NCBI GenBank assembly: GCA_902533755.1
Contig: CACANC010000001.1
Location: forward strand, 3,668-67,667
Length of the DNA stretch: 64,000 bases
Source: an uncultured PS1 clade bacterium
Lineage (GTDB): Bacteria > Pseudomonadota > Alphaproteobacteria > MED-G09
Direction: 5' to 3'
Below, piece after piece: positions 2,536 through 52,171 of the stretch. A program made the translations under genes and the position numbers. The stretch's first letter is position 1. Each line of letters begins with the position of its first letter. The notes beneath the pieces are model-generated. The model was given only the letters and a program-made list of their open reading frames with translations, did no database searches and was not told the DNA's origin.

Positions 2536-2589
2536 TTTCTCTTGAATAAATCAAAAATTTCATGCATTTATCTTTTTAAAGGTAATGAA

Positions 2590-2694
2590 ATGGAACAATT
2601 AGAAAATAATAATTTTTTTGAAAGCATCGATTCTTTCAACAATAATTCTTTGGTTGTTCTAGTTTTACTAGCATTACTCCTGATTTGCCTCTGA
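2590..2694 (+). CDS. Putative leader peptide, 34 aa, with nine Leu (seven within its last 14 residues); candidate leu attenuator
   Basis: Small ORF in the 219-bp ilvC-leuA spacer, translated by hand as MEQLENNNFFESIDSFNNNSLVVLVLLALLLICL*. Its stop codon lies inside the following hairpin. Confidence 0.5.
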   Translation: MEQLENNNFFESIDSFNNNSLVVLVLLALLLICL

Positions 2695-2721
2695 GGTTCA
2701 ATTTATTTTTGTTCTCAGAGG
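2688..2721 (+). promoter_or_regulatory. Stem-loop overlapping the leader-peptide stop codon; candidate attenuator element
   Basis: 8-bp perfect inverted repeat cctctgag...ctcagagg with a T-rich 18-nt loop. Lies between the leader ORF and the leuA ribosome-binding site (ggag). Confidence 0.4.
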
Positions 2722-2754
2722 TTAAAAACACATTCAATACAAATGGAGTAAGAA

Positions 2755-4302
2755 ATGAATAGTAAAGATAATTATATTAAAATTTTTGATACAACCTTAA
2801 GGGATGGTGAGCAGTCCCCTGGAGCTTCAATGTCTCTTGAGGAAAAAATACAAATCGCTGAAATTTTCGATGAAATGGGTGTAGACATTATTGAAGCCGG
2901 ATTTCCGATTGCATCAAATGGTGATTTTGAGTCAGTTAAAGAAGTCTCTAGATTAGTAAAAAATGTTCAAGTCTGTGGGCTATCTAGGGCAGGTCAAAAG
3001 GATATCGATAGAGCAGCCGAGGCATTAAAGTATGCAAAAAACCCTAGAATTCATACTTTTATTTCAACCAGCCCTGTTCACATGCAGTACAAATTACAAA
3101 TGAATGAGCAAGAAGTTCTTGATGCCATTAATTTCTCTGTATCAAGAGCAAGAAATTTAGTAGAAGATGTTCAATGGTCTGCTGAAGATGCCACAAGAAC
3201 AGATAGGGATTTTTTATTTAAATGTGTTGATATGGCTATATCATCCGGAGCTACCACAATTAATATTCCTGATACAGTAGGTTATACAACCCCAGATGAA
3301 TATTATGAAATAATTGACTCTTTAATAAAAAATATACCAGATTCAGATAAAGTTGTTTTCTCAACACATTGCCATAATGATTTAGGTTTAGCAGTTGCTA
3401 ATTCTTTATCTGGCGTCAGAGCGGGCGCAAGACAAATTGAGTGCACTATGAATGGAATTGGTGAGAGAGCTGGTAATGCTGCTCTTGAAGAAATTGTCAT
3501 GTCTATGAAAGTAAGAAATGATATATTAGATTATGACTCAGGAGTTGAGACAACACTTTTTACTCGTGCATCAAAACTTGTATCTTCAGTCACATCTTTT
3601 CCGGTTCAATTTAATAAGGCTATTGTAGGAAAAAATGCTTTTGCACATGAATCTGGGATTCATCAGGATGGAATGTTAAAGAATAATGAAACATATGAAA
3701 TCATGACTCCAGAAAGTATTGGTTTAAATGAATCCACTTTAGTGATGGGTAAGCATTCAGGAAGACATGCCTTTAAAGAAAAAGCTAAAGAACTTGGGTA
3801 TGTGTTAGCTGACAATCAATTAAATGATGCATTTTATAGGTTTAAGGATTTAGCTGATAAGAAAAAAGAAGTTTTTGATGATGATATTGTTGCGCTAATT
3901 GATGATGAATTTTCTAAAGGTTTAGATATTATAAAACTAATATCATTATCTATTTATGCTGGTACAGAAGGCCCACAATTTGCAGATCTTTCATTAGAGA
4001 TTGATGGAGAAGTAAAACAAAATAAATCTGAGGGTGATGGACCAGTTGATGCTTTATTTAATTCAATAAGGACTCTTATTCCACATACCGCTAGTTTACA
4101 GTTATATCAGGTCCATGCTGTCACAGAAGGAACTGATGCTCAAGCGGAAGTTAGTGTAAGATTGCACGAATCAGGTAAGACAGTTATAGGAAGAGGTGCA
4201 GATACTGATACTTTAGTAGCCTCTGCTCGGGCGTATATAAGTGCTTTAAATCGTCTTATGGTTAAAAGAGAGAAAAGTATTCCTGAGGAGATAGCTAATT
4301 AA
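2755..4302 (+). CDS. leuA: 2-isopropylmalate synthase
   Basis: 515 aa. N-terminal IFDTTLRDGEQSPG and HxH metal-site motifs (STHCHNDLGLAVAN). C-terminal LeuA dimerisation/regulatory domain. Confidence 0.92.
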   Translation: MNSKDNYIKIFDTTLRDGEQSPGASMSLEEKIQIAEIFDEMGVDIIEAGFPIASNGDFESVKEVSRLVKNVQVCGLSRAGQKDIDRAAEALKYAKNPRIHTFISTSPVHMQYKLQMNEQEVLDAINFSVSRARNLVEDVQWSAEDATRTDRDFLFKCVDMAISSGATTINIPDTVGYTTPDEYYEIIDSLIKNIPDSDKVVFSTHCHNDLGLAVANSLSGVRAGARQIECTMNGIGERAGNAALEEIVMSMKVRNDILDYDSGVETTLFTRASKLVSSVTSFPVQFNKAIVGKNAFAHESGIHQDGMLKNNETYEIMTPESIGLNESTLVMGKHSGRHAFKEKAKELGYVLADNQLNDAFYRFKDLADKKKEVFDDDIVALIDDEFSKGLDIIKLISLSIYAGTEGPQFADLSLEIDGEVKQNKSEGDGPVDALFNSIRTLIPHTASLQLYQVHAVTEGTDAQAEVSVRLHESGKTVIGRGADTDTLVASARAYISALNRLMVKREKSIPEEIAN

Positions 4303-4315
4303 TTAGGAGAATTTT

Positions 4316-7172: not shown

Positions 7173-8315
7173 ATGTATAGAAAACAAAGAAAGAGCATTT
7201 TACATAAAAGAACTCTCTACTTTGATAAATTTAGAGGTATTAATTATGGCATACCACTTTGTTTACTTATGTTAGGTTCTACCGGATTATTGATGCTATT
7301 TTCCATTTCTGGTGGAGAATTTAATCAGACAGTAATGAATCATTTTCTTCGTTTAATAGTTGGATTCATATTTTTTATATTTTTTTCCTTTATTAGTTTT
7401 CGAATTCTGAGAGTTATTTCTTTTCCAATGTATTTTGTGATACTGGCTATGCTGGCTTGGCTATATGTATTTGAAACTTCAACAGTGTCTAGATGGATAA
7501 ATTTAGGCGGAACAAGTTTTCAGCCATCAGAGTTTTTAAAATTTATACTAATTTTAACATTAGCTTCCTATTATAGTTTTTTTGGAGAAAGCAAATCTAG
7601 GCAATTGAGATACAATGTATTACCAATAATACTAATTTTGGTTCCTTCTTTTTTAATTTTAAATCAACCTGATTTGGGGACAGCTGTTTTACTAATTCTA
7701 GCAGGGTTTTCAACTGTTTTCTTTTCTGGGCTTTATTTGAAATGGGTTGTATTGGGCTCATCATTTGTTTTTGTGACTATCCCGCTCATTATTGCTAGCT
7801 TAAAGCCTTACCAAATGAAAAGATTAGAAGTTTTTCTTGATCCTGATAAGGATCCTTTCGGATCAGGTTATCATATAATTCAATCAAAAATAGCAATTGG
7901 TTCTGGAGGTTTAATTGGAAAAGGTTTTATGTCAGGCACACAGAGTCAGCTTAATTTTCTTCCTGAAAAACATAATGATTTTATGTTAGCAGTGCTCCTT
8001 GAAGAAACAGGATTAGTAGGGGGAATATTTATTTTCTCAATTTTTTCCTACTTTATTATAATATCTATGCATACTTCAATCATAGCTAGAAGTCGATTTA
8101 GTTCAGTTGCATGTGGATCAATATCTGTGTTAATTTTTTTATATTTCTTTATTAATTGCGCGATGATAACTGGATTAATTCCAATAGTTGGTGTTCCAAT
8201 ACCTATGCTTTCATACGGTGGTTCAGCAATAATCTCTCTTTGTGCAGCGATGGGGTTTGTTCTTAATGCAAGAAGGCAAAGGGATATAAAGATTGAGAGT
8301 ATATTAGATGCATAG
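7173..8315 (+). CDS. rodA: Peptidoglycan glycosyltransferase RodA (SEDS family)
   Basis: 380 aa polytopic membrane protein with FtsW/RodA/SpoVE-like conserved C-terminal region. Immediately downstream of mrdA. Confidence 0.85.
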   Translation: MYRKQRKSILHKRTLYFDKFRGINYGIPLCLLMLGSTGLLMLFSISGGEFNQTVMNHFLRLIVGFIFFIFFSFISFRILRVISFPMYFVILAMLAWLYVFETSTVSRWINLGGTSFQPSEFLKFILILTLASYYSFFGESKSRQLRYNVLPIILILVPSFLILNQPDLGTAVLLILAGFSTVFFSGLYLKWVVLGSSFVFVTIPLIIASLKPYQMKRLEVFLDPDKDPFGSGYHIIQSKIAIGSGGLIGKGFMSGTQSQLNFLPEKHNDFMLAVLLEETGLVGGIFIFSIFSYFIIISMHTSIIARSRFSSVACGSISVLIFLYFFINCAMITGLIPIVGVPIPMLSYGGSAIISLCAAMGFVLNARRQRDIKIESILDA

Positions 8316-9135
8316 AATTCATCCAATTGATGAGATTATAGAAGAAAGATGTCCTAAATTGATGTCTAATAAGTTTTTGTGGTCGGTTATAAAGCCTACA
8401 ATTTTTAAAATATTTAAATATCAAACAGCAAAAAACATTACCGACGATATTTCTAATATATCTGGTTTTGAATGTTTTACTTATTTAACAAATCTGCTGA
8501 AATTTAATCTAGATATAAGAAATATTGAATTGGTACCAGAACATGGCCCAATCATATTAGCGGGAAATCATCCAACTGGTCTTACTGATGGAATAGTAAT
8601 GTTTGAAGTTATGAAAGATAGGCGCCCTGATTATACGCTTTATGCAAATGTTGACATGATTAAGTTATCTAGAGGTTTTGAAGATATTATTATTCCTGTC
8701 GATTGGAATGATGACAATAAAAACATTAGTAAAAGCAAAGAAATTCTGAAAAGAACGAAGGAGACTTTTACTGAAGGTAAGTGTTTATTGGTTTTTCCAT
8801 CATCTCGCCTTTCTAAAAGAAAAGGCTTCAAGTTGTTTGAAAGACCTTGGTTAAACACTATTGTTAAGTTGTCAAAGAAATATAATGCGCCAATTATACC
8901 TTTTCATATGGATGGACATAATTCACTTTTTTATTATTTTTTAGATATTTTTAATGAAGAATTAAAGAACATTAGTCTATTTAGCGAACTGGTAAATAAA
9001 GAGGAATTTAAGTATACAATTACTTTCGGTCGCCAAATTGATCCATTAGATATTAATGGCGATATTGATAAAGAAACCTCAAGAATCCAAAAGCATGTTG
9101 AATTTACACTTGGTAATCCACCCCTAATCCTATAG
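8308..9135 (+). CDS. Putative lysophospholipid/glycerolipid acyltransferase (LPLAT-like)
   Basis: 275 aa. Start overlaps the rodA stop by 8 nt. Contains AGNHPTGLTDG, resembling the acyltransferase HX4-5D catalytic block. No closer assignment possible by eye. Confidence 0.35.
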   Translation: MHRIHPIDEIIEERCPKLMSNKFLWSVIKPTIFKIFKYQTAKNITDDISNISGFECFTYLTNLLKFNLDIRNIELVPEHGPIILAGNHPTGLTDGIVMFEVMKDRRPDYTLYANVDMIKLSRGFEDIIIPVDWNDDNKNISKSKEILKRTKETFTEGKCLLVFPSSRLSKRKGFKLFERPWLNTIVKLSKKYNAPIIPFHMDGHNSLFYYFLDIFNEELKNISLFSELVNKEEFKYTITFGRQIDPLDINGDIDKETSRIQKHVEFTLGNPPLIL

Positions 9136-22119: not shown

Positions 22120-23724
<1,605 letters not shown>

Positions 23725-23727
23725 AAC

Positions 23728-33324: not shown

Positions 33325-33326
33325 AT

Positions 33327-33560
33327 CTATTCTTCATTCATTGTTTTAATTGATAGAGCATGGAGTTCACCACCCATTTTTCCATCTAAAGCATCATATA
33401 CCATTTTATGCTGTTTAATCCTAGATAAACCGTTAAATTTGCTTGATTTAATCTCTAATGAAAAATGATCGTCATCTCCCGCTAAATCAACAATATTAAT
33501 TGAAGCTTCAGGAAAAGATTTTTTTATAATTTCTTCTAATTTTTCTTTTTTAATTGCCAT
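33327..33560 (-). CDS. bolA: BolA-family protein
   Basis: 77 aa. BolA-like helix-turn-helix region (DGKMGGELHALSIKT). Adjacent to grxD, a known functional pair. Confidence 0.8.
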   Translation of the reverse strand: MAIKKEKLEEIIKKSFPEASINIVDLAGDDDHFSLEIKSSKFNGLSRIKQHKMVYDALDGKMGGELHALSIKTMNEE

Positions 33561-36435: not shown

Positions 36436-36681
36436 TTATTTTTCTCTATCAAAAATAATTTCGTAATCTTCAATAATTAGATTAACTAATAATTTTTTAC
36501 ACATTTCATCGGCAATATTTATCGCTTGATCTTTATCTGCATCAATATCAATTTCGATAATTTTTCCTTGTCGAATTTCTGAGAACTTTTTGAAACCAAG
36601 TTGACTCAATGAATTTTCTATTGCTTTACCTTGAGGATCAAGAACTCCATTTTTAGGCATTATTTTTACATTTAATTTCAT
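36436..36681 (-). CDS. purS: Phosphoribosylformylglycinamidine synthase subunit PurS
   Basis: 81 aa. Position and size in purS-purQ-purL order. Confidence 0.85.
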   Translation of the reverse strand: MKLNVKIMPKNGVLDPQGKAIENSLSQLGFKKFSEIRQGKIIEIDIDADKDQAINIADEMCKKLLVNLIIEDYEIIFDREK

Positions 36682-36693
36682 AGCGTTAATTTA

Positions 36694-40416: not shown

Positions 40417-40504
40417 GCGGACATGGTGGAATTGGTAGACACATCAGACTTAAAATCTGAAGGAGATTATCTCCGTCCCGGTTCGAGTCCGGGTGTCCGC
40501 ACCA
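40417..40504 (+). tRNA. tRNA-Leu (anticodon UAA), class II with long variable arm
   Basis: Folded by hand. 7-bp acceptor stem gcggaca/tgtccgc, 3-bp D stem, anticodon stem tcaga/tctga with loop cuUAAaa, variable arm ggaga-ttat-ctcc, T arm cccgg-ttcgagt-ccggg, and encoded CCA. Confidence 0.85.
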
Positions 40505-46326: not shown

Positions 46327-47694
46327 ATGGAAATTCGATTATATAACTCAAAAAGTAAGAAAAAAGAGATATTTCATCCTCTTGATGATGAAAATGTGAC
46401 TATGTATGTATGTGGCCCGACAGTTTATGGGTCACATCATATTGGCAATGCAAGACCAGCGGTAGTTTTTGATGTATTGGCAAAATTACTAAGAAATAAA
46501 TATAAAAATGTGACATATGCAAGAAACATAACTGATATTGATGATAAAATAATAAATGCTGCTTTAGAGCAAAATGTTGAAATATCTGAAATTACTAAGA
46601 AATCTACAAATCAATATCATTCAGATATGAAAATTTTGAATGTTGAAGAACCTAATAGGGAGCCTTATGCAACACAATTTATTTCTGAGATGATTTTATT
46701 TATTGAGGATCTAATAAAAAAAGATAATGCATACCTTTCTGAAGGACATGTGTTATTTAATATTGATTCTTATAAATCATATGGTGATTTATCTAGCAGA
46801 GATCCTAAAGATATGATTGCAGGCTCAAGAGTTGAAGTTCAAGATTACAAAAAAAATCCTTTAGATTTTGTTTTGTGGAAACCTTCTAATGAAAATGAGA
46901 TTGGCTGGAACAGTCCTTGGGGAAGAGGGCGACCAGGATGGCACCTAGAATGCTCAACTATGATTCTAGAGATATTTGGAAAAACTATAGATATTCATGG
47001 TGGAGGTGAAGATTTAAGGTTTCCTCATCATGAAAATGAGTGCGCGCAGTCATTTTGTAGAAATGATGGTAAGCAATTAGCAAATTTTTGGTTACATAAT
47101 GGAATGGTTCAAATGGCAGACTCCAAAATGTCTAAATCTCTTGGAAATATTATTTTAATTAAAGATTTAATTAACGATATGCCCGGAGAAGTAATAAGGT
47201 TATCTTTAATGAGTTCTCATTATAGACAGCCTTTAAAGTGGTCAGATGAATTAGTTAATCAATCAAAAAAAACATTAGATACTTTTTATTCATTCTTAGA
47301 ACAGTATGAGGATGTTGATATTATCGATGCTAAAATTAATGAAGAAATTCTTACTTCTTTATCTGATGACATTAATACACCAAAAGCAATATCAGTTCTG
47401 CATTCAATATTTAAAGATCTAAAAAAAGATTCTGACAATATTGAGTTAAGGAGCTCATTTATTAAATCTGCCAACTTTATGGGGCTTTTATTTTCAAAGC
47501 CAAGTAATTGGTTATTAAAAGAAGATAATAATGTTGATACAAAAGTAATTGATGGGCTAATTAAAGAAAGAAATCAAGCAAGGCAATCTAAAGATTTTTC
47601 AGCTGCGGATAAAATAAGAAATAAACTTTTAGATATGGGTGTAGTGCTTGAAGATAAGAATGATATTACTACTTGGAAGAAAAAAAATGATTAA
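46327..47694 (+). CDS. cysS: Cysteine-tRNA ligase
   Basis: 455 aa. HIGH (HIGNAR) and KMSKS motifs, plus Zn-binding Cys. Confidence 0.92.
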   Translation: MEIRLYNSKSKKKEIFHPLDDENVTMYVCGPTVYGSHHIGNARPAVVFDVLAKLLRNKYKNVTYARNITDIDDKIINAALEQNVEISEITKKSTNQYHSDMKILNVEEPNREPYATQFISEMILFIEDLIKKDNAYLSEGHVLFNIDSYKSYGDLSSRDPKDMIAGSRVEVQDYKKNPLDFVLWKPSNENEIGWNSPWGRGRPGWHLECSTMILEIFGKTIDIHGGGEDLRFPHHENECAQSFCRNDGKQLANFWLHNGMVQMADSKMSKSLGNIILIKDLINDMPGEVIRLSLMSSHYRQPLKWSDELVNQSKKTLDTFYSFLEQYEDVDIIDAKINEEILTSLSDDINTPKAISVLHSIFKDLKKDSDNIELRSSFIKSANFMGLLFSKPSNWLLKEDNNVDTKVIDGLIKERNQARQSKDFSAADKIRNKLLDMGVVLEDKNDITTWKKKND

Positions 47695-48109
47695 GGATTT
47701 ATACAATACAAATATTTTAAGGTTATCATCAGATATCCCTAGATTAGGAAAGCTTGATAAACCACATTCTTCCTCTACGGTAGTAAGTAAATTATGTGGT
47801 TCTAAAATTACCGTTTATTTAAATATGGAAGATAATATTGTAAATGATTTTACCCATGAAATTAAAGCTTGTTCTCTTGGTAAGGCAGCATCCTCAGTTA
47901 TGGCAAGAAATATAATAGGATCAGGTTCAAAAGAGCTCTTAGAAATAAAAAAAGAAATGTACAATATGCTAAAGGAAAATGGTGCCCCTCCATCTGGAAA
48001 ATGGGAAGATTTGAAATATTTTGAACCAGTTAAGGACTTTAAAGGAAGGCATGCATCTGTTTTATTGGTTTTCGATGCTGTTGAAAATTGTATAAATGAG
48101 TTAAAATAA
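47687..48109 (+). CDS. NifU/IscU-like Fe-S cluster scaffold-domain protein
   Basis: Start placed at MIKDLYN, overlapping the cysS 3' end. Conserved Cys contexts LCGS, KACSLGKAASS and ENC resemble the NifU N-terminal scaffold fold. Confidence 0.55.
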   Translation: MIKDLYNTNILRLSSDIPRLGKLDKPHSSSTVVSKLCGSKITVYLNMEDNIVNDFTHEIKACSLGKAASSVMARNIIGSGSKELLEIKKEMYNMLKENGAPPSGKWEDLKYFEPVKDFKGRHASVLLVFDAVENCINELK

Positions 48110-48349
48110 AAAAAGGGAGCTTTCATCAAGCTCCCTTTAGTTTGACTTAACCGCCCCCGATTAAACCATGATCTTCCGCTACCTTTCTTCAGTGCTCCTT
48201 CTTTTTCAAGACCAGCTTCCTGTTTCTGGCTGGTTTCTATCCAGATATTTCTATCTTTCTTTTCACCATGGATCTTATACCATTCGATCCTCACTGCGGC
48301 TTCTCACCCGCCCATCGGTCATTGGTCATTGCGACCGACAATTAGATTA
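48104..48349 (-). ncRNA. Candidate small RNA, copy A of a paralogous pair (~245 nt, unknown family)
   Basis: Minus-strand σ70-like promoter: -35 TTGATT (48379-48384), -10 TTTAAT (48356-48361), 17-bp spacer. Conserved core gtcggtcgcaatgaccaatg.... Ends in the hairpin gggagctt-gatg-aagctccc plus a U-tract. About 78% identical to copy B on the opposite strand. Confidence 0.5.
48112..48138. terminator. Bidirectional intrinsic terminator (GC hairpin; strong U-tract on the minus strand)
   Basis: Hairpin aaagggagc-tttcatcaa-gctcccttt. On the minus strand it is followed by UUUUUAUUUU. It also sits 3 nt after the NifU-like gene stop on the plus strand. Confidence 0.65.
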
Positions 48350-48383
48350 AAACATAATTATGGATCACAATCAATTATCAAAA

Positions 48384-48412
48384 GTCATTTAGTTGTGGAT
48401 AACTTCATTTTT
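48384..48412 (-). promoter_or_regulatory. Two perfect DnaA boxes (TTATCCACA), direct repeats 20 bp apart
   Basis: tgtggataa at 48384-48392 and 48404-48412 on the plus strand, so TTATCCACA on the minus strand. Located between the thrS stop and the copy-A promoter. Confidence 0.55.
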
Positions 48413-48432
48413 CTGTGGATAAAATAAATTGA

Positions 48433-50343
48433 TCAACTATCTGGTGCAGCAGTTTCTTTAAGAATCAAATCTATACTATCTTGTATGCTAAGTATTTCTT
48501 GTTTTTCTGAGCCAAGTTTTCTGATTGCGACAGTTCCATCATTCATCTCATTAACTCCAACAACAAAAATAAAAGGTATTTTATTTACCGAATGTTCTCG
48601 AACTTTATAATTAATTTTTTCGTTTCGAGAATCTAAAATAACCCTTATTCCTTTTTCTATAAATTTTTCTTCTATCTTATGAGCATATTTATCTGCTTTA
48701 GATGTTATAGTAGCAACCACCACTTGGATTGGAGCTAACCAAACAGGGAACCTTCCTTCATAATGCTCAATTAAAATACCTGTAAATCTCTCTAAACTTC
48801 CTAAAATAGCACGATGAAGCATAACGGGCGTATGTTTTTCATTATCTTCTCCAATATAATTTGCCCTCAATCTTCCTGGCATATTAAAATCAACCTGTAA
48901 TGTTCCACATTGCCATTTTCTACCAATAGCATCGTGAAGATAAAAATCTAACTTCGGTCCATAAAAAGCGCCATCTCCATTATTTATATCAAAGGGTATG
49001 CCTGTTGCTTTAGACGCATTCAAAAGTGCATTTTCAGCTTTATCCCAGATCTCATCTTTACCTACCCTTTGGTCTGGCCTATCAGCATACATTATTGAAA
49101 CCTCTTCAAAACCCAATTCACTATATACATCCTGAAGCAGTTTACAAAAACTTATAGTTTCACTCTCTATTTGATCTTCGGTGCAGAAAATATGCGCATC
49201 ATCTTGAACAAAATTCCTAACCCTCATTAAACCATGCAGTGCACCAGATGGCTCATTACGATGGCATGAACCAAATTCTGCCATTCTCAGTGGAAGATCT
49301 TTATAGCTTTTTATACCTTGATTATATATTTGAACATGGCCTGGGCAGTTCATAGGTTTAATCATCAATTCTCTATCATCAATAATTGTTTTATACATAT
49401 TATCTTTGTATTTATCCCAATGACCTGACTCAACCCATAAATCTTTATCTAAAATTTGCGGTGTTTTGATTTCTTTATATCCTTCTTTTGAAATTTTTCT
49501 TCGAATATAGTCTTCCAACTCTTTATAAATTGACCAACCATTTGCATGCCAAAAAACCATACCAGGTGCAATGTCTTGAAAGTGGAAAAGGTCTAACTCT
49601 TTTCCAATTTTTCTGTGATCTCTTTTCTCTGCTTCCTCAAGAAGAATAAGATGTTTTTTTAACTCTTTTTCAGATGCCCACGCGGTTCCATATACTCTTT
49701 GAAGCATTTTATTATCAGAGCTACCCCTCCAATATGCTCCAGCAATTTTTGTTAATTTAAAAGCTTTTAAGTGCCTAACTGATGTAACATGAGGGCCTCT
49801 ACACATATCAATATATTCATTATGATGATATAGGGCTATAATCTCATCATTGGGAATTTCATTAATTATTTCAACTTTATAAGGTTCATTTCTTTTCTCA
49901 AATGTATCAAGCGCCTTTTTTCTTGTTACAACTTCTCTAACAACACCATAATTTGTTTGAGCTAATTCTTTCATTCTTAACTCAATTTTTTCTAAATCAT
50001 TCTCACTTAATGACTCCTCAAGATCAATATCGTAATAGAAACCATTTTCTATAGTTGGTCCTATAGCCATTTTTGCTTTAGGATATAATTGTTTTAAAGC
50101 ATGGCCAAACAAATGGGCACATGAATGCCTAATTATCTCTATTCCATCTTCATCACTATTTGTGATTAAAACTACATCAGAATCTGCTTCAATTAGCTCT
50201 GATGCATCTACAATTTTTCCATTAAGCATACCAGCAACAGTTGCTTTAGCTAATCCCGATCCAATTGAAGATGCAAGTTCATCAAAATTAATTGGCTTAT
50301 CGAATTCTTTTACTGATCCATCTGGTAATTTTATTTTTGGCAT
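48433..50343 (-). CDS. thrS: Threonine-tRNA ligase
   Basis: 636 aa. TGS domain, class II aaRS core, Zn-binding editing motifs and anticodon-binding domain. Confidence 0.93.
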
Positions 50344-50345
50344 AA

Positions 50346-50591
50346 CTAATTATTTATCTTCTTTTTAATAGGAACTGGATCATATCCATAACCACCCCAA
50401 GGATTACATTTTATAATACGAATAAAGGATAATTTAAAACCATGAAAAAATCCATGTTTTGAAAAAGCTTCCATTGCATAAGATGAACATGAAGGCTCAA
50501 ATCTACAAGACTTACCTAAAAAAGGTGATATTAAATATTTGTACCCCCTGATTAATATAATACATATTTTACTTGCTATACCCATAACCAT
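50346..50591 (-). CDS. yidD: Membrane protein insertion efficiency factor YidD
   Basis: 81 aa. [28 protein letters not shown] is the canonical YidD sequence. Confidence 0.85.
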
Positions 50592-50624
50592 AAAATTAAT
50601 AAGTTATTTATATGCTATAAATTA

Positions 50625-50653
50625 ATTTGTTATTTTATCCACAGAAAAATTGA
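50625..50653 (+). promoter_or_regulatory. Two perfect DnaA boxes (TTATCCACA), direct repeats 20 bp apart
   Basis: ttatccaca at 50625-50633 and 50645-50653. Located 34-62 bp upstream of the yidD start and upstream of the copy-B promoter. Confidence 0.55.
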
Positions 50654-50708
50654 GTTATCCACAAAAAAATAATGCAGCTGAATTGACCAACACTATTTGC
50701 TATGTCTT

Positions 50709-50950
50709 AATAATTGTGACGGTCGTAATGACCAATGGCCGTTGGGCGGGTGATATGCCGCTGTGAGGGTCGGATGGTCTCCGATCCATGGTGAAAGTAA
50801 AGGTAGCAATATCTTGAGGATAGCCAGCCAAAAGACAGAAAGCTGGTCTGTAAAAGGAAGAAGCGCTGGATTAGGGTAGCGAGATATCAGTCTTAATCGG
50901 GGGCGATTAAGTCACACTAAAAGGGAGCTCGATGTGGGTTCCCTTTTTTT
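50709..50950 (+). ncRNA. Candidate small RNA, copy B of the paralogous pair (~240 nt, unknown family)
   Basis: -35 TTGACC (50673-50678), 17-bp spacer, -10 CTTAAT/TAATAAT. Conserved core gacggtcgtaatgaccaatgg.... Conserved internal stem ccagc...gctgg with a variable loop in both copies. Ends in a 10-bp hairpin plus U9. Confidence 0.5.
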
Positions 50951-50954
50951 TTAA
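50921..50954 (+). terminator. Intrinsic terminator (10-bp stem with two G·U pairs, followed by T9)
   Basis: aagggagctc-gatgt-gggttccctt then ttttttttt. Relative to copy A, a t→c change is paired with an a→g change in the stem, which is compensatory. Confidence 0.7.
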
Positions 50955-50956
50955 AA

Positions 50957-52171
50957 TTAACATTTTCCAATTATTCCATTTTCTTCTAATTTATTAATTT
51001 CTTCTGTTGAGTAACCCATTTCACTTAATATTTCTTTGTTATGTTCACCGAGTAGAGGTGCCGGTCCTTTTGGTCCTACATCACTATCATGGAATTTAAC
51101 CGGAGAAGCTAAAGAAAGGTATTTTTCTTCACATTCTGGGTCTTCAATTTCAACAAATGATCCTGCTTCAATAGCTTGTTTGTCATTTGCAACTTCGCTT
51201 AAATTTTGTACAGGCGCCCAAATTAGATCTTCTTTGTCTAATCTTTCACCCCATTCTTCAAGAGTTAATTGACTAAAAGCTTCATCCATAGCTTTTACAA
51301 AGTCTGTAGAGTTAGACCTTCTACCATGATGATTATTAAATCTCTCATCTTCCAACCATTCTTCTCTCCCGATAGCTCTTGCTACTTGAGGTAAATCCCA
51401 ATCACCTCCTGCTCTTGGACTAAGGCATATCCATCTATCATCTTTGGTTTTAAAAAAATTAGCTATTGGATTTATTTGTTCATCTCTTTTTTTTGTTGAT
51501 GGAACTCTTCCAAACCTTAATTGAAGGGCCATATCTGAGCCTATGGAATAAATTCCTGTCCTTAAGAGAGAGCTCTCAACAACTTTACCTTTACCTGTTT
51601 TTTGTCTTTCATAAACTGCAGCTAATATTCCACTAACTGTTGATATTGAGGTGATATGATCTCCAACAGCAACTCTGATAGGTAAGGGCTCTTCACCTTT
51701 TCTCTGAGTTAAATGTGCCATTCCAGATCTTGACCAAAATGCAGCAATATCAAAACCAGGTCGATCTCTTTCTTCCCCGTCAAGACCGTAACCTGACAAA
51801 GAGCAATATATTAGCTTAGGATTAATTTCCAAAAGCGTTTCATGATCAAGTTTTGATTTTTCTAATGATGTAGGTCTAACATTTGTCAAAAAGATATCTG
51901 CATCTTTAATTAATTGTCTAACAATATCAGCACCTTTTTCATTGCTAGTATTTATTGTCATCCCTTTTTTACCTCTATTATCGAGACTAAAGATAGGGTT
52001 ACCTACGATTTCTAATTTTGATTTTGTTCCTTCAAAAAATGATCTCATTGGACAACCTGTCAATGGTTCAACTTTAATAACCTCTGCTCCCCAATCTCGA
52101 AGCATACCACCTGCTCCAGGAGCGGCTACATACGTTGACATCTCAATAACTCTTAATCCTTCTAACATCAT
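50957..52171 (-). CDS. Family III CoA-transferase (CaiB/BaiF family)
   Basis: 404 aa. N-terminal LEGLRVIEMSTYVAAPGAGGMLRDWGAEVIKVEP is typical of CoA-transferase family III. Confidence 0.8.
   Translation of the reverse strand: MMLEGLRVIEMSTYVAAPGAGGMLRDWGAEVIKVEPLTGCPMRSFFEGTKSKLEIVGNPIFSLDNRGKKGMTINTSNEKGADIVRQLIKDADIFLTNVRPTSLEKSKLDHETLLEINPKLIYCSLSGYGLDGEERDRPGFDIAAFWSRSGMAHLTQRKGEEPLPIRVAVGDHITSISTVSGILAAVYERQKTGKGKVVESSLLRTGIYSIGSDMALQLRFGRVPSTKKRDEQINPIANFFKTKDDRWICLSPRAGGDWDLPQVARAIGREEWLEDERFNNHHGRRSNSTDFVKAMDEAFSQLTLEEWGERLDKEDLIWAPVQNLSEVANDKQAIEAGSFVEIEDPECEEKYLSLASPVKFHDSDVGPKGPAPLLGEHNKEILSEMGYSTEEINKLEENGIIGKC

Follow-up and report, generated by a model that had tools for sequence, protein, structure and literature searches.

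Leucine (Leu) biosynthesis in enterobacteria is controlled by leader peptides through transcription termination, and the trp attenuator of Sinorhizobium meliloti (trpL/rnTrpL) uses an intrinsic terminator. In the ermC, cat and cmlA systems, an antibiotic together with the nascent peptide stalls the ribosome, and the leader RNA switches from 1:2/3:4 to 2:3 pairing. Ribosome-mediated attenuation is described as a widespread principle in Proteobacteria in reviews cited in PMC6123439 and PMC5314783. In Actinobacteria, the LEU element (Seliverstov et al. 2005, PMC1262725) has a base stem formed by a run of Leu codons and the Shine-Dalgarno (SD) sequence of leuA; its authors favoured protein binding, as mutation of the Leu codons in Streptomyces had little effect. 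Here we describe a Leu-rich leader located between ilvC and leuA (2-isopropylmalate synthase) in a 64,000-nucleotide (nt) stretch of DNA from an uncultured PS1 clade bacterium (contig CACANC010000001.1), hereafter the window. The leader has no terminator, carries its stop codon in a conserved hairpin and probably acts on translation; the principle of amino-acid sensing by a leader peptide is already known.

The element comprises an upstream open reading frame (uORF) and a hairpin, P1, directly 5' of the presumed regulated gene:

2590-2694, + strand: leader uORF of 34 codons plus UGA, MEQLENNNFFESIDSFNNNSLVVLVLLALLLICL, with ATG at 2590 and TGA at 2692-2694
2659-2682, + strand: Leu codon cluster CUA GUU UUA CUA GCA UUA CUC CUG, the presumed stalling window, in which rare CUN codons are concentrated
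2687-2696 and 2713-2722, + strand: arms of hairpin P1, 10 base pairs (bp), loop of 16 nt, with the uORF stop UGA (2692-2694) in the 5' arm
2755-4302, + strand: leuA, presumed regulated gene (NCBIfam NF002087, 838 bits, cut-off 729)

The genome is very compact, with 32% G+C. The ilvC-leuA spacer of 219 nt ranks fifth in length among 40 same-strand spacers (median 9 nt), in agreement with the initial annotation, which had called it long for this genome. The 34-residue peptide with nine Leu was likewise found where it had been annotated, with eight Leu in the last 14 residues instead of the seven counted before, and it includes a run of three Leu codons (UUA CUC CUG). Of 17187 segments of 14 residues from the window's actual proteins, one contained seven or more Leu; such a density also occurred in 3 of 322 small ORFs starting with ATG. 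The uORF ends its series of Leu codons with those that the genome uses least (CUC 3.4%, CUG 3.2%, CUA 9%). The only tRNA gene in the window, a tRNA-Leu(UAA) at 40417-40504, is specific for the common UUA/UUG and does not read the rare CUN codons that close the leader.

The core of P1 is formed by CCTCTGAG (2688-2695) pairing with CTCAGAGG (2714-2721), and the pairing extends to 10 bp when two G-U pairs are included (GCCUCUGAGG, 2687-2696, with UCUCAGAGGU, 2713-2722). The stop codon had been placed inside an 8-bp perfect hairpin immediately upstream of the leuA ribosome-binding site (RBS). The perfect hairpin and the position of the stop codon hold; the hairpin is near the RBS, yet it ends 22-23 nt before GGAG (2745-2748). 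The hairpin pattern occurs once in the 64 kilobases (kb) of the window, compared with 0.11 occurrences expected by chance.

To follow the leader in related organisms, two sets of leuA loci were used. A LeuA protein search returned 120 proteins, all 99-100% identical, and was useless for diversity. The PS1-clade set was obtained with a degenerate DNA pattern for the 5' end of leuA on metagenome contigs, which yielded 41 stretches and 26 distinct spacers in all. Each of these 26 spacers is 222-227 nt long and contains both the uORF and P1. The uORFs are 33-36 codons long in all 26 variants, with a variable N-terminal half and a conserved C-terminus (..LL.LLL[I/V][C/S]L*). The uORF, the hairpin and the SD sequence are also kept in seven PS1/OCS116-clade genomes whose LeuA proteins are 83-99% identical.

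Outside the clade, 36 of 44 alphaproteobacterial leuA loci (46-70% G+C) carry the leader by a strict rule and six more in a relaxed form; only L024 is without it. Conservation of the uORF among relatives, which the initial annotation had proposed as a check, was thus strong, in the PS1 clade as in the wider class. By the strict rule, uORFs end in ...CUU CUC CUU AGC CGC CCC UGA or ...CUU CGA CUU AGG UGC CCC UGA, and the stop codon is found at one constant place in a CCCCUGAG ... CUCAGGGG hairpin. The motif is enriched about 100-fold in the regions 5' of leuA (36 hits in 13.2 kb vs 21 in 763 kb). The encoded peptides of the non-PS1 homologs end in LLL[S/I/M/T][R/N]P* or GLRL..P*, and across the class the uORFs share only their Leu codons and the nucleotide context. 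The Leu codons located 4-6 codons 5' of the stop read CUN-CNN-CUU-A in most lineages and UUA-CUC-CUG-A in the window, which deviates at two otherwise invariant positions of the motif (U for C, G for U). In an alignment of 26 non-PS1 leaders, CU.C..CUUA (columns 9-18) is invariant at the nucleotide level and lies 4 nt 5' of the hairpin.

The window nevertheless shares the family features of a C(C/U)CU-stop 5' arm paired with its AG(G/A)GG complement, a position directly 5' of leuA, and the lack of a terminator. A covariance model, R1, was built from the 26 non-PS1 leaders only, with loops trimmed to 16 nt. Its best match in the window was 2666-2727 on the + strand (13.5 bits, E ~0.04; 0.036 under a rough calibration), and the next of the three hits had an E-value of 3.6. 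This places the window element in a family that extends across the Alphaproteobacteria sampled.

The nature of the constraint on P1 could be read from its substitutions. Among 35 distinct alphaproteobacterial sequences, six of the ten pairs change on both sides, involving 36 alignment cells, and none of 500 shuffles equalled this. Only the covariation is informative here, and not the percentage of paired positions, because the first seven pairs had served to select the loci. Swaps between the stop codons UGA, UAA and UAG are matched by compensating changes in the 3' arm. A C-G pair is replaced by a compensated U-A pair in the PS1 clade, L018, L029 and L032, and the constraint therefore acts on the RNA rather than on a C-terminal proline.

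P1 is conserved in sequence as well as in structure throughout the class sampled (CCCCUGAG/CUCAGGGG or CCUCUGAG/CUCAGAGG). Conservation of the sequence itself would suit an intercistronic element for RNA stability or processing, for instance a hairpin that stabilizes the 5' end of leuA mRNA after cleavage of an ilvIHC-leuA transcript, or a protein-binding site, with the Leu-rich ORF being secondary; the analogous element of Actinobacteria has itself been proposed to bind a protein (PMC1262725). We regard this as improbable, as the uORF stop takes a constant position within the 5' arm in almost every lineage, the CUU-A located 8 nt before the arm is invariant in the 26 non-PS1 leaders, and the uORF with its Leu codons is still present in L041, where the stop has moved. 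The fixed position of the stop and its fixed distance from the Leu codons tie the hairpin to translation of the uORF.

Departures from the strict form were also seen. In L041 (~3880-3950), the hairpin CCCCGGAC/GUCCGGGG is kept and the uORF stop is shifted into the loop. In L016, L020, L027, L034 and L061, the 5' arm reads GCGCCUGA or UCCCUUGA. A CCCCUGA-N14/15-UCAGGGG hairpin 58-144 nt 5' of leuA in L055, L057, L059, L060 and L062 (Tharpella, 'Deltaproteobacteria') was rejected as a look-alike, since a Leu uORF is missing from all five loci. It seems to serve the preceding gene as its terminator; a U-tract (GGGGGAUUUUUUU) follows the hairpin in L060, the one locus among them in which the tail was read.

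Alternatively, the peptide could be small, hydrophobic and membrane-located, with its own function and no part in leucine sensing. Its C-terminal half, LVVLVLLALLLICL, does resemble half a transmembrane helix. We consider this reading extremely unlikely: the N-terminal half is not conserved even inside the PS1 clade, the other alphaproteobacterial uORFs encode no hydrophobic helices (..RARLLLLSRP, ..GLGLRLRSP), and scans of the leader peptides against Pfam and NCBIfam returned no family. The peptides are also essentially absent from the protein collection, in which exact look-up of ten of them found a single one on record, unnamed.

The codon run CUU/CUG-CGA-CUU-AGG characterizes one non-PS1 leader class and is expected to be rare in high-G+C genomes. 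Its CUU-AGG part presumably resembles the Ty1 +1 frameshift site, which is speculation on our side. Frameshifting by +1 at CUU-A or CUU-AGG was dropped as a candidate, as the +1 frame of the window meets UGA at once.

The initial annotation had interpreted the leader as a transcription attenuator with the architecture of the enterobacterial leu and ivbL leaders. Classical ribosome-mediated attenuation of this kind, with an intrinsic terminator and an antiterminator, would fit the leader peptide, Leu-rich and using rare Leu codons, and its location directly 5' of a stable hairpin and leuA. The sequence after P1 is UUAAAAACAC, however, and contains no U-tract. No hairpin followed by a U-tract was found between the uORF end and position +30 of leuA in any of 37 homologous leaders, and a consensus scan found no terminator-like site in 2536-2754. 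Neither the minimum free energy (MFE) and centroid structures nor constrained and consensus folds contained a structure competing with P1, and no mutually exclusive terminator/antiterminator pair was found. The initial annotation had named the lack of such alternatives as refuting, and this part of it is thus refuted on its own terms. Because both the U-tract and a competing structure are missing, the classical mechanism is not supported, and we consider it very unlikely.

Comparison with Rfam gave no relevant match for the whole window (gathering threshold), for 2400-2900 (E<=10) or for 15 related loci; in particular, neither Leu_leader (RF00512) nor the T-box matched. A weak match to SpR18 on the minus strand (21.6 bits against a gathering score of 60) was dismissed as chance. 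No description of an alphaproteobacterial leuA leader was found in the open-access literature, although a 2004 comparative study of proteobacterial attenuators may list one.

The genes downstream of leuA bear on the level at which control could be exerted. The distance from the leuA stop to mreB is 13 nt (4303-4315), and mreB has a UUG start and an AGGAG SD sequence. No terminator was found between leuA and mreB in the window, and the adjacency of the two genes is kept in most of the alphaproteobacterial loci fetched. leuA may thus share a transcript with the cell-shape genes mreB, mrdA and rodA. With mreB this close and no terminator in between, a transcriptional off-switch would silence mreB, mrdA and rodA as well, which a translational one would not.

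A route to translational control is offered by predicted pairing between the uORF and the leuA SD sequence, in an outer helix (P0) or an alternative to it:

2744-2751, + strand: leuA SD region UGGAGUAA, 3' strand of P0
2654-2661, + strand: anti-SD segment 1, UUGUUCUA, codons 22-24, 5' strand of P0; pairs with 2744-2751 in the RNAalifold consensus
2674-2680, + strand: anti-SD segment 2, UUACUCC, Leu codons 29-31; pairs with GGAGUAA (2745-2751) in the MFE structure

In the 91-nt 3' domain (2670-2760), the MFE and centroid structures are identical (z = -3.24), and the SD pairing encloses the stop hairpin. Across the 26 PS1-clade spacers, RNAalifold predicted P0 with 93% of the alignment cells paired, vs 45-58% when the partner was slid. 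Three P0 pairs change on both sides; one of these changes is UGGAG to AGGAG, matched by A to U, for which L081 and L098 represent unmatched intermediates. UUACUCC is invariant at synonymous sites in all lineage-A variants of the PS1 clade despite divergence elsewhere.

The strongest uORF partner of the RBS depends on the lineage, and the duplex energies are block-diagonal for the PS1 lineages A, B and C. UUACUCC pairs with GGAGUAA in lineage A, UUUAUCACU with AGUGAUGAG (including the start codon) in lineage B, and UUUUAUCUCU with GGAGAUARAA in lineage C. Long lineage-specific complementarity between uORF and RBS, formed by unrelated sequences, was also found in L014 (-32 kcal/mol), L019, L026/L030, L029, L032, L035, L036 and L073. 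Since a permutation test over all lineages was confounded by G+C, it was redone in the 22 high-GC lineages only, where cognate uORF-RBS pairs beat non-cognate ones (137 of 20000 permutations reached the observed value). A universal CUCCUU-AAGGA pairing would be invisible to this test.

Accordingly arranged, these elements suggest a leucine-sensing leader that acts on the initiation of leuA translation, i.e., translational attenuation, which we hold with about even confidence. The leader RNA would be made from a promoter in the spacer, by read-through from ilvC, or both. The pyrimidine-rich 3' half of the uORF (UUGUUCUA, 2654-2661, and UUACUCC, 2674-2680) would pair with the leuA SD sequence (UGGAGUAA, 2744-2751), and P1 (2687-2722), which holds the uORF stop, would close the intervening RNA and bring the two strands together. 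When charged Leu-tRNA is plentiful, ribosomes would traverse the uORF, open P1, terminate at UGA and leave, after which the masking helix would re-form and little LeuA would be made. When Leu-tRNA is scarce, a ribosome would dwell on the rare Leu codons 24-31 and cover both anti-SD segments while P1 stays folded; the leuA RBS would then be free and LeuA synthesis would rise. From the sequence we infer translation of the uORF, ribosome stalling when Leu is limiting, a promoter in the spacer, and regulation in the direction described. The initial annotation's proposal that the Leu-rich leader and hairpin control leuA separately from the ilv genes (here ilvIHC) is supported, and the element is strongly conserved.

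The mechanism was modelled by folding the leader with the ribosome footprint forced to be single-stranded. The predicted probability of the SD sequence being unpaired was 0.14 in the free RNA, 0.8-0.9 with the A site on codons 27-31, and ~0.4 with the ribosome on the stop codon.

Several results weigh against translational masking. The SD partner in the window is ambiguous, with two segments available, and the register of the strongest partner shifts among lineages A, B and C. L098 and L102 have a U to C change in their strongest partner that is not compensated. The window duplex is only ~1 standard deviation better than random segments from within leuA, and pyrimidine-rich Leu, Val and Ser codons pair readily with any purine-rich SD sequence. 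The stall model opens the SD sequence only partly in L003, L004 and L006 (0.3-0.5 unpaired), and the uORF contains an early Leu codon (codon 4) at which a stalled ribosome would not open the site. Predicted masking of the RBS is common, and many genes of the window are predicted to be equally inaccessible when folded with 180 nt of upstream sequence. Lineage-specific uORF-RBS complementarity was not found in the high-GC lineages L008, L010, L017, L018, L022, L023 and L033, so that the universal features, i.e., the Leu codons and the stop in the hairpin, are not fully explained by translational masking.

Two further ideas were set aside. Generic predicted accessibility was dropped as evidence of masking, as the value for leuA does not stand out from those of the other genes in the window. 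A switch of three elements, with the 3' arm of P1 pairing with a downstream UCCC motif, is absent from the window and inconsistent among lineages.

The lineages without complementarity would be accounted for by the main rival of translational attenuation, Rho-dependent attenuation that is linked to the leader peptide as in tnaC, mgtL or speFL. After termination at the stop codon in P1, the untranslated RNA would allow Rho to terminate transcription before or inside leuA, and a Leu-stalled ribosome would alter the RNA fold or block Rho loading. Such a mechanism would be compatible with a leader that is conserved although an intrinsic terminator is absent. The distance from P1 to the leuA AUG is mostly 33-66 nt in the 37 leaders, and some high-GC spacers between P1 and leuA reach 85-156 nt. 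In many high-GC relatives this RNA is U-poor and C-rich, with more C than G (L008 0.40/0.29, L026 0.43/0.23, L033 0.41/0.31). Most high-GC uORFs also end in Pro-UGA, as does TnaC. In the window, by contrast, the gap between P1 and the AUG is 32-33 nt with 55% A and 12% C; a typical Rho utilization (rut) site would need more length and more C. With only ~33 A-rich nt between hairpin and AUG, Rho-dependent attenuation is unlikely in the window. Polarity would furthermore strike mreB, mrdA and rodA, and the PS1 uORFs end in Leu-stop rather than Pro-stop, with the C to U change compensated in the hairpin. Overall, we judge Rho-dependent attenuation to be unlikely, but it is a serious rival for relatives with long C-rich spacers. 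Rho could also act secondarily, as a consequence of translational masking.

A broader reading is that the leaders form an undescribed, class-wide family of regulatory RNAs, absent from Rfam, in which a uORF senses leucine without a terminator by an uncharacterized mode of attenuation. We put this forward tentatively, with clearly less confidence than translational attenuation of leuA. The invariant core would be CUU-A followed after 4 nt by CCCCUGAG ... CUCAGGGG, a geometry that would place a stable hairpin at the leading edge of a ribosome with the last Leu codon in its A site and the stop codon inside the hairpin. The stalled ribosome would directly mask or unmask the RBS, possibly in combination with hairpin-dependent slowing or slow termination at Pro-UGA.

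The leader resembles enterobacterial leuL (RF00512) and ivbL in having a short Leu-rich peptide with rare Leu codons immediately 5' of leuA, and the presumed signal, ribosome stalling at scarce Leu-tRNA, is that of the enterobacterial leu leader. It differs from them in lacking an intrinsic terminator or a terminator/antiterminator alternative and in carrying its stop inside a conserved hairpin. Unlike the leu leader, it precedes leuA alone and not leuABCD, and its likely output is translation initiation. Exposure of a sequestered downstream RBS by a ribosome stalled on a leader ORF, as proposed here, would be analogous to the translational attenuators of ermC, cat and cmlA; the presumed trigger would instead be uncharged tRNA-Leu, and the stalled ribosome would mask the anti-SD segments directly.

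Judged by its published description, the actinobacterial LEU element is similar in its uORF with Leu codons, its lack of a terminator and its base stem between the Leu-codon region and the SD sequence. For such a stem in the PS1 clade, pairing is predicted and covariation is present, while the partner is ambiguous and base composition favours chance pairing. The LEU element belongs to another phylum, and the core described here is a simple stop-holding hairpin without a pseudoknot.

A pseudoknot is possible in PS1 lineages B and C only, which would be a further likeness to the LEU element. In these lineages the P1 loop CUUUUGGC is complementary to GCCAAAA(A) located 12-16 nt 3' of the hairpin, and both partners are invariant in 15 distinct sequences (L004, L005, L006, L039, L082-L117). 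No equivalent pairing was found in 2697-2743 of the window, and lineage A is without it.

If control is exerted on translation initiation, the leader would represent an amino-acid-sensing counterpart of the antibiotic-sensing erm/cat attenuators and a proteobacterial parallel to the unexplained actinobacterial LEU element. It is found 5' of leuA in nearly all Alphaproteobacteria sampled, with no terminator in the 37 leaders scanned, and its uORFs are essentially unannotated in public protein collections. The 219 nt devoted to it stand out in a very compact marine genome whose spacers have a median length of 9 nt; if the class-wide reading is true, the streamlined PS1 genomes would have retained the leader among few cis-regulators. 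Culturable carriers include Ancylobacter novellus (L022), Methylopila (M. jiangsuensis, L033), Prosthecomicrobium hirschii (L036) and rhizobia such as L023 and L025. Occupancy of the leuA leader in marine metatranscriptome or ribosome profiling (Ribo-seq) data could report leucine limitation.

The following features complete the locus, whose gene order is ilvI, ilvH, ilvC, leuA, mreB, mrdA, rodA:

Start of the gene order: ilvI, partial
1513-2535, + strand: ilvC (NCBIfam equivalog)
2542-2570, + strand: possible leader promoter, TTGAAT (2542-2547), 17 nt, CATTTA (2565-2570)
2578-2583, + strand: SD-like AAAGGU of the uORF, 7 nt 5' of AUG2590
2591-2661, + strand: predicted 5' domain hairpin within the uORF, long and imperfect, in MFE structures

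The candidate promoter was not called by a consensus scan, and its -10-like box is without the usual final T. CTTGA and GCAT(T)TA show little or no variation and keep a fixed spacing in all 26 distinct PS1-clade spacers, while the intervening sequence is variable. The SD-like AAAGGU is kept in lineage A and absent from lineages B and C. A leaderless uORF would fit the latter two, because their AUG lies 7-8 nt past the second promoter-like box, and judging from this spacing it may be leaderless there. The S. meliloti trpL mRNA is leaderless (PMC10117765); the PS1 leader shares with trpL/rnTrpL the bacterial class, the idea of a regulatory leader peptide and, in lineages B and C, perhaps this trait as well. 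The 3' strand of the hairpin at 2591-2661 overlaps anti-SD segment 1, and a similar long hairpin was predicted in L004 and L006.

The initial annotation had regarded the direct succession of ilvC and leuA as unusual. The layout is not unusual, because ilvH-ilvC-leuA-mreB is a common order in the alphaproteobacterial loci fetched. The window LeuA is 99% identical to proteins of an 'uncultured PS1 clade bacterium' single-amplified genome (SAG) and of a Rhodobiaceae metagenome-assembled genome (MAG), and the LeuA regulatory domain PF08502 is listed among its precomputed Pfam domains.

Upstream of ilvI in the PS1 clade (L001-L006, L039; ~380-475), the end of a miaA-like gene is followed by a conserved promoter-like site, TTGACC-N17-TAATTT. 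No leader ORF rich in Ile, Leu and Val was found before ilvI in these seven loci. A 2004 study by Vitreschak et al. is said to have predicted ilvIH attenuators for other Alphaproteobacteria.

Other long spacers of the window are 50344-50956 (613 nt), 47695-48432 (738 nt), 36436-36693 (258 nt), 33325-33559 (235 nt) and 23508-23727 (220 nt). An Rfam E-value scan of 47600-51000 gave no match; the spacer at 47695-48432 contains overlapping ORFs of ~150 amino acids on both strands. Directly 3' of rodA, genes for an OlsF/GlsA-like lipid N-acyltransferase (8308-9135) and a cytochrome P450 (9156-10427) were identified.

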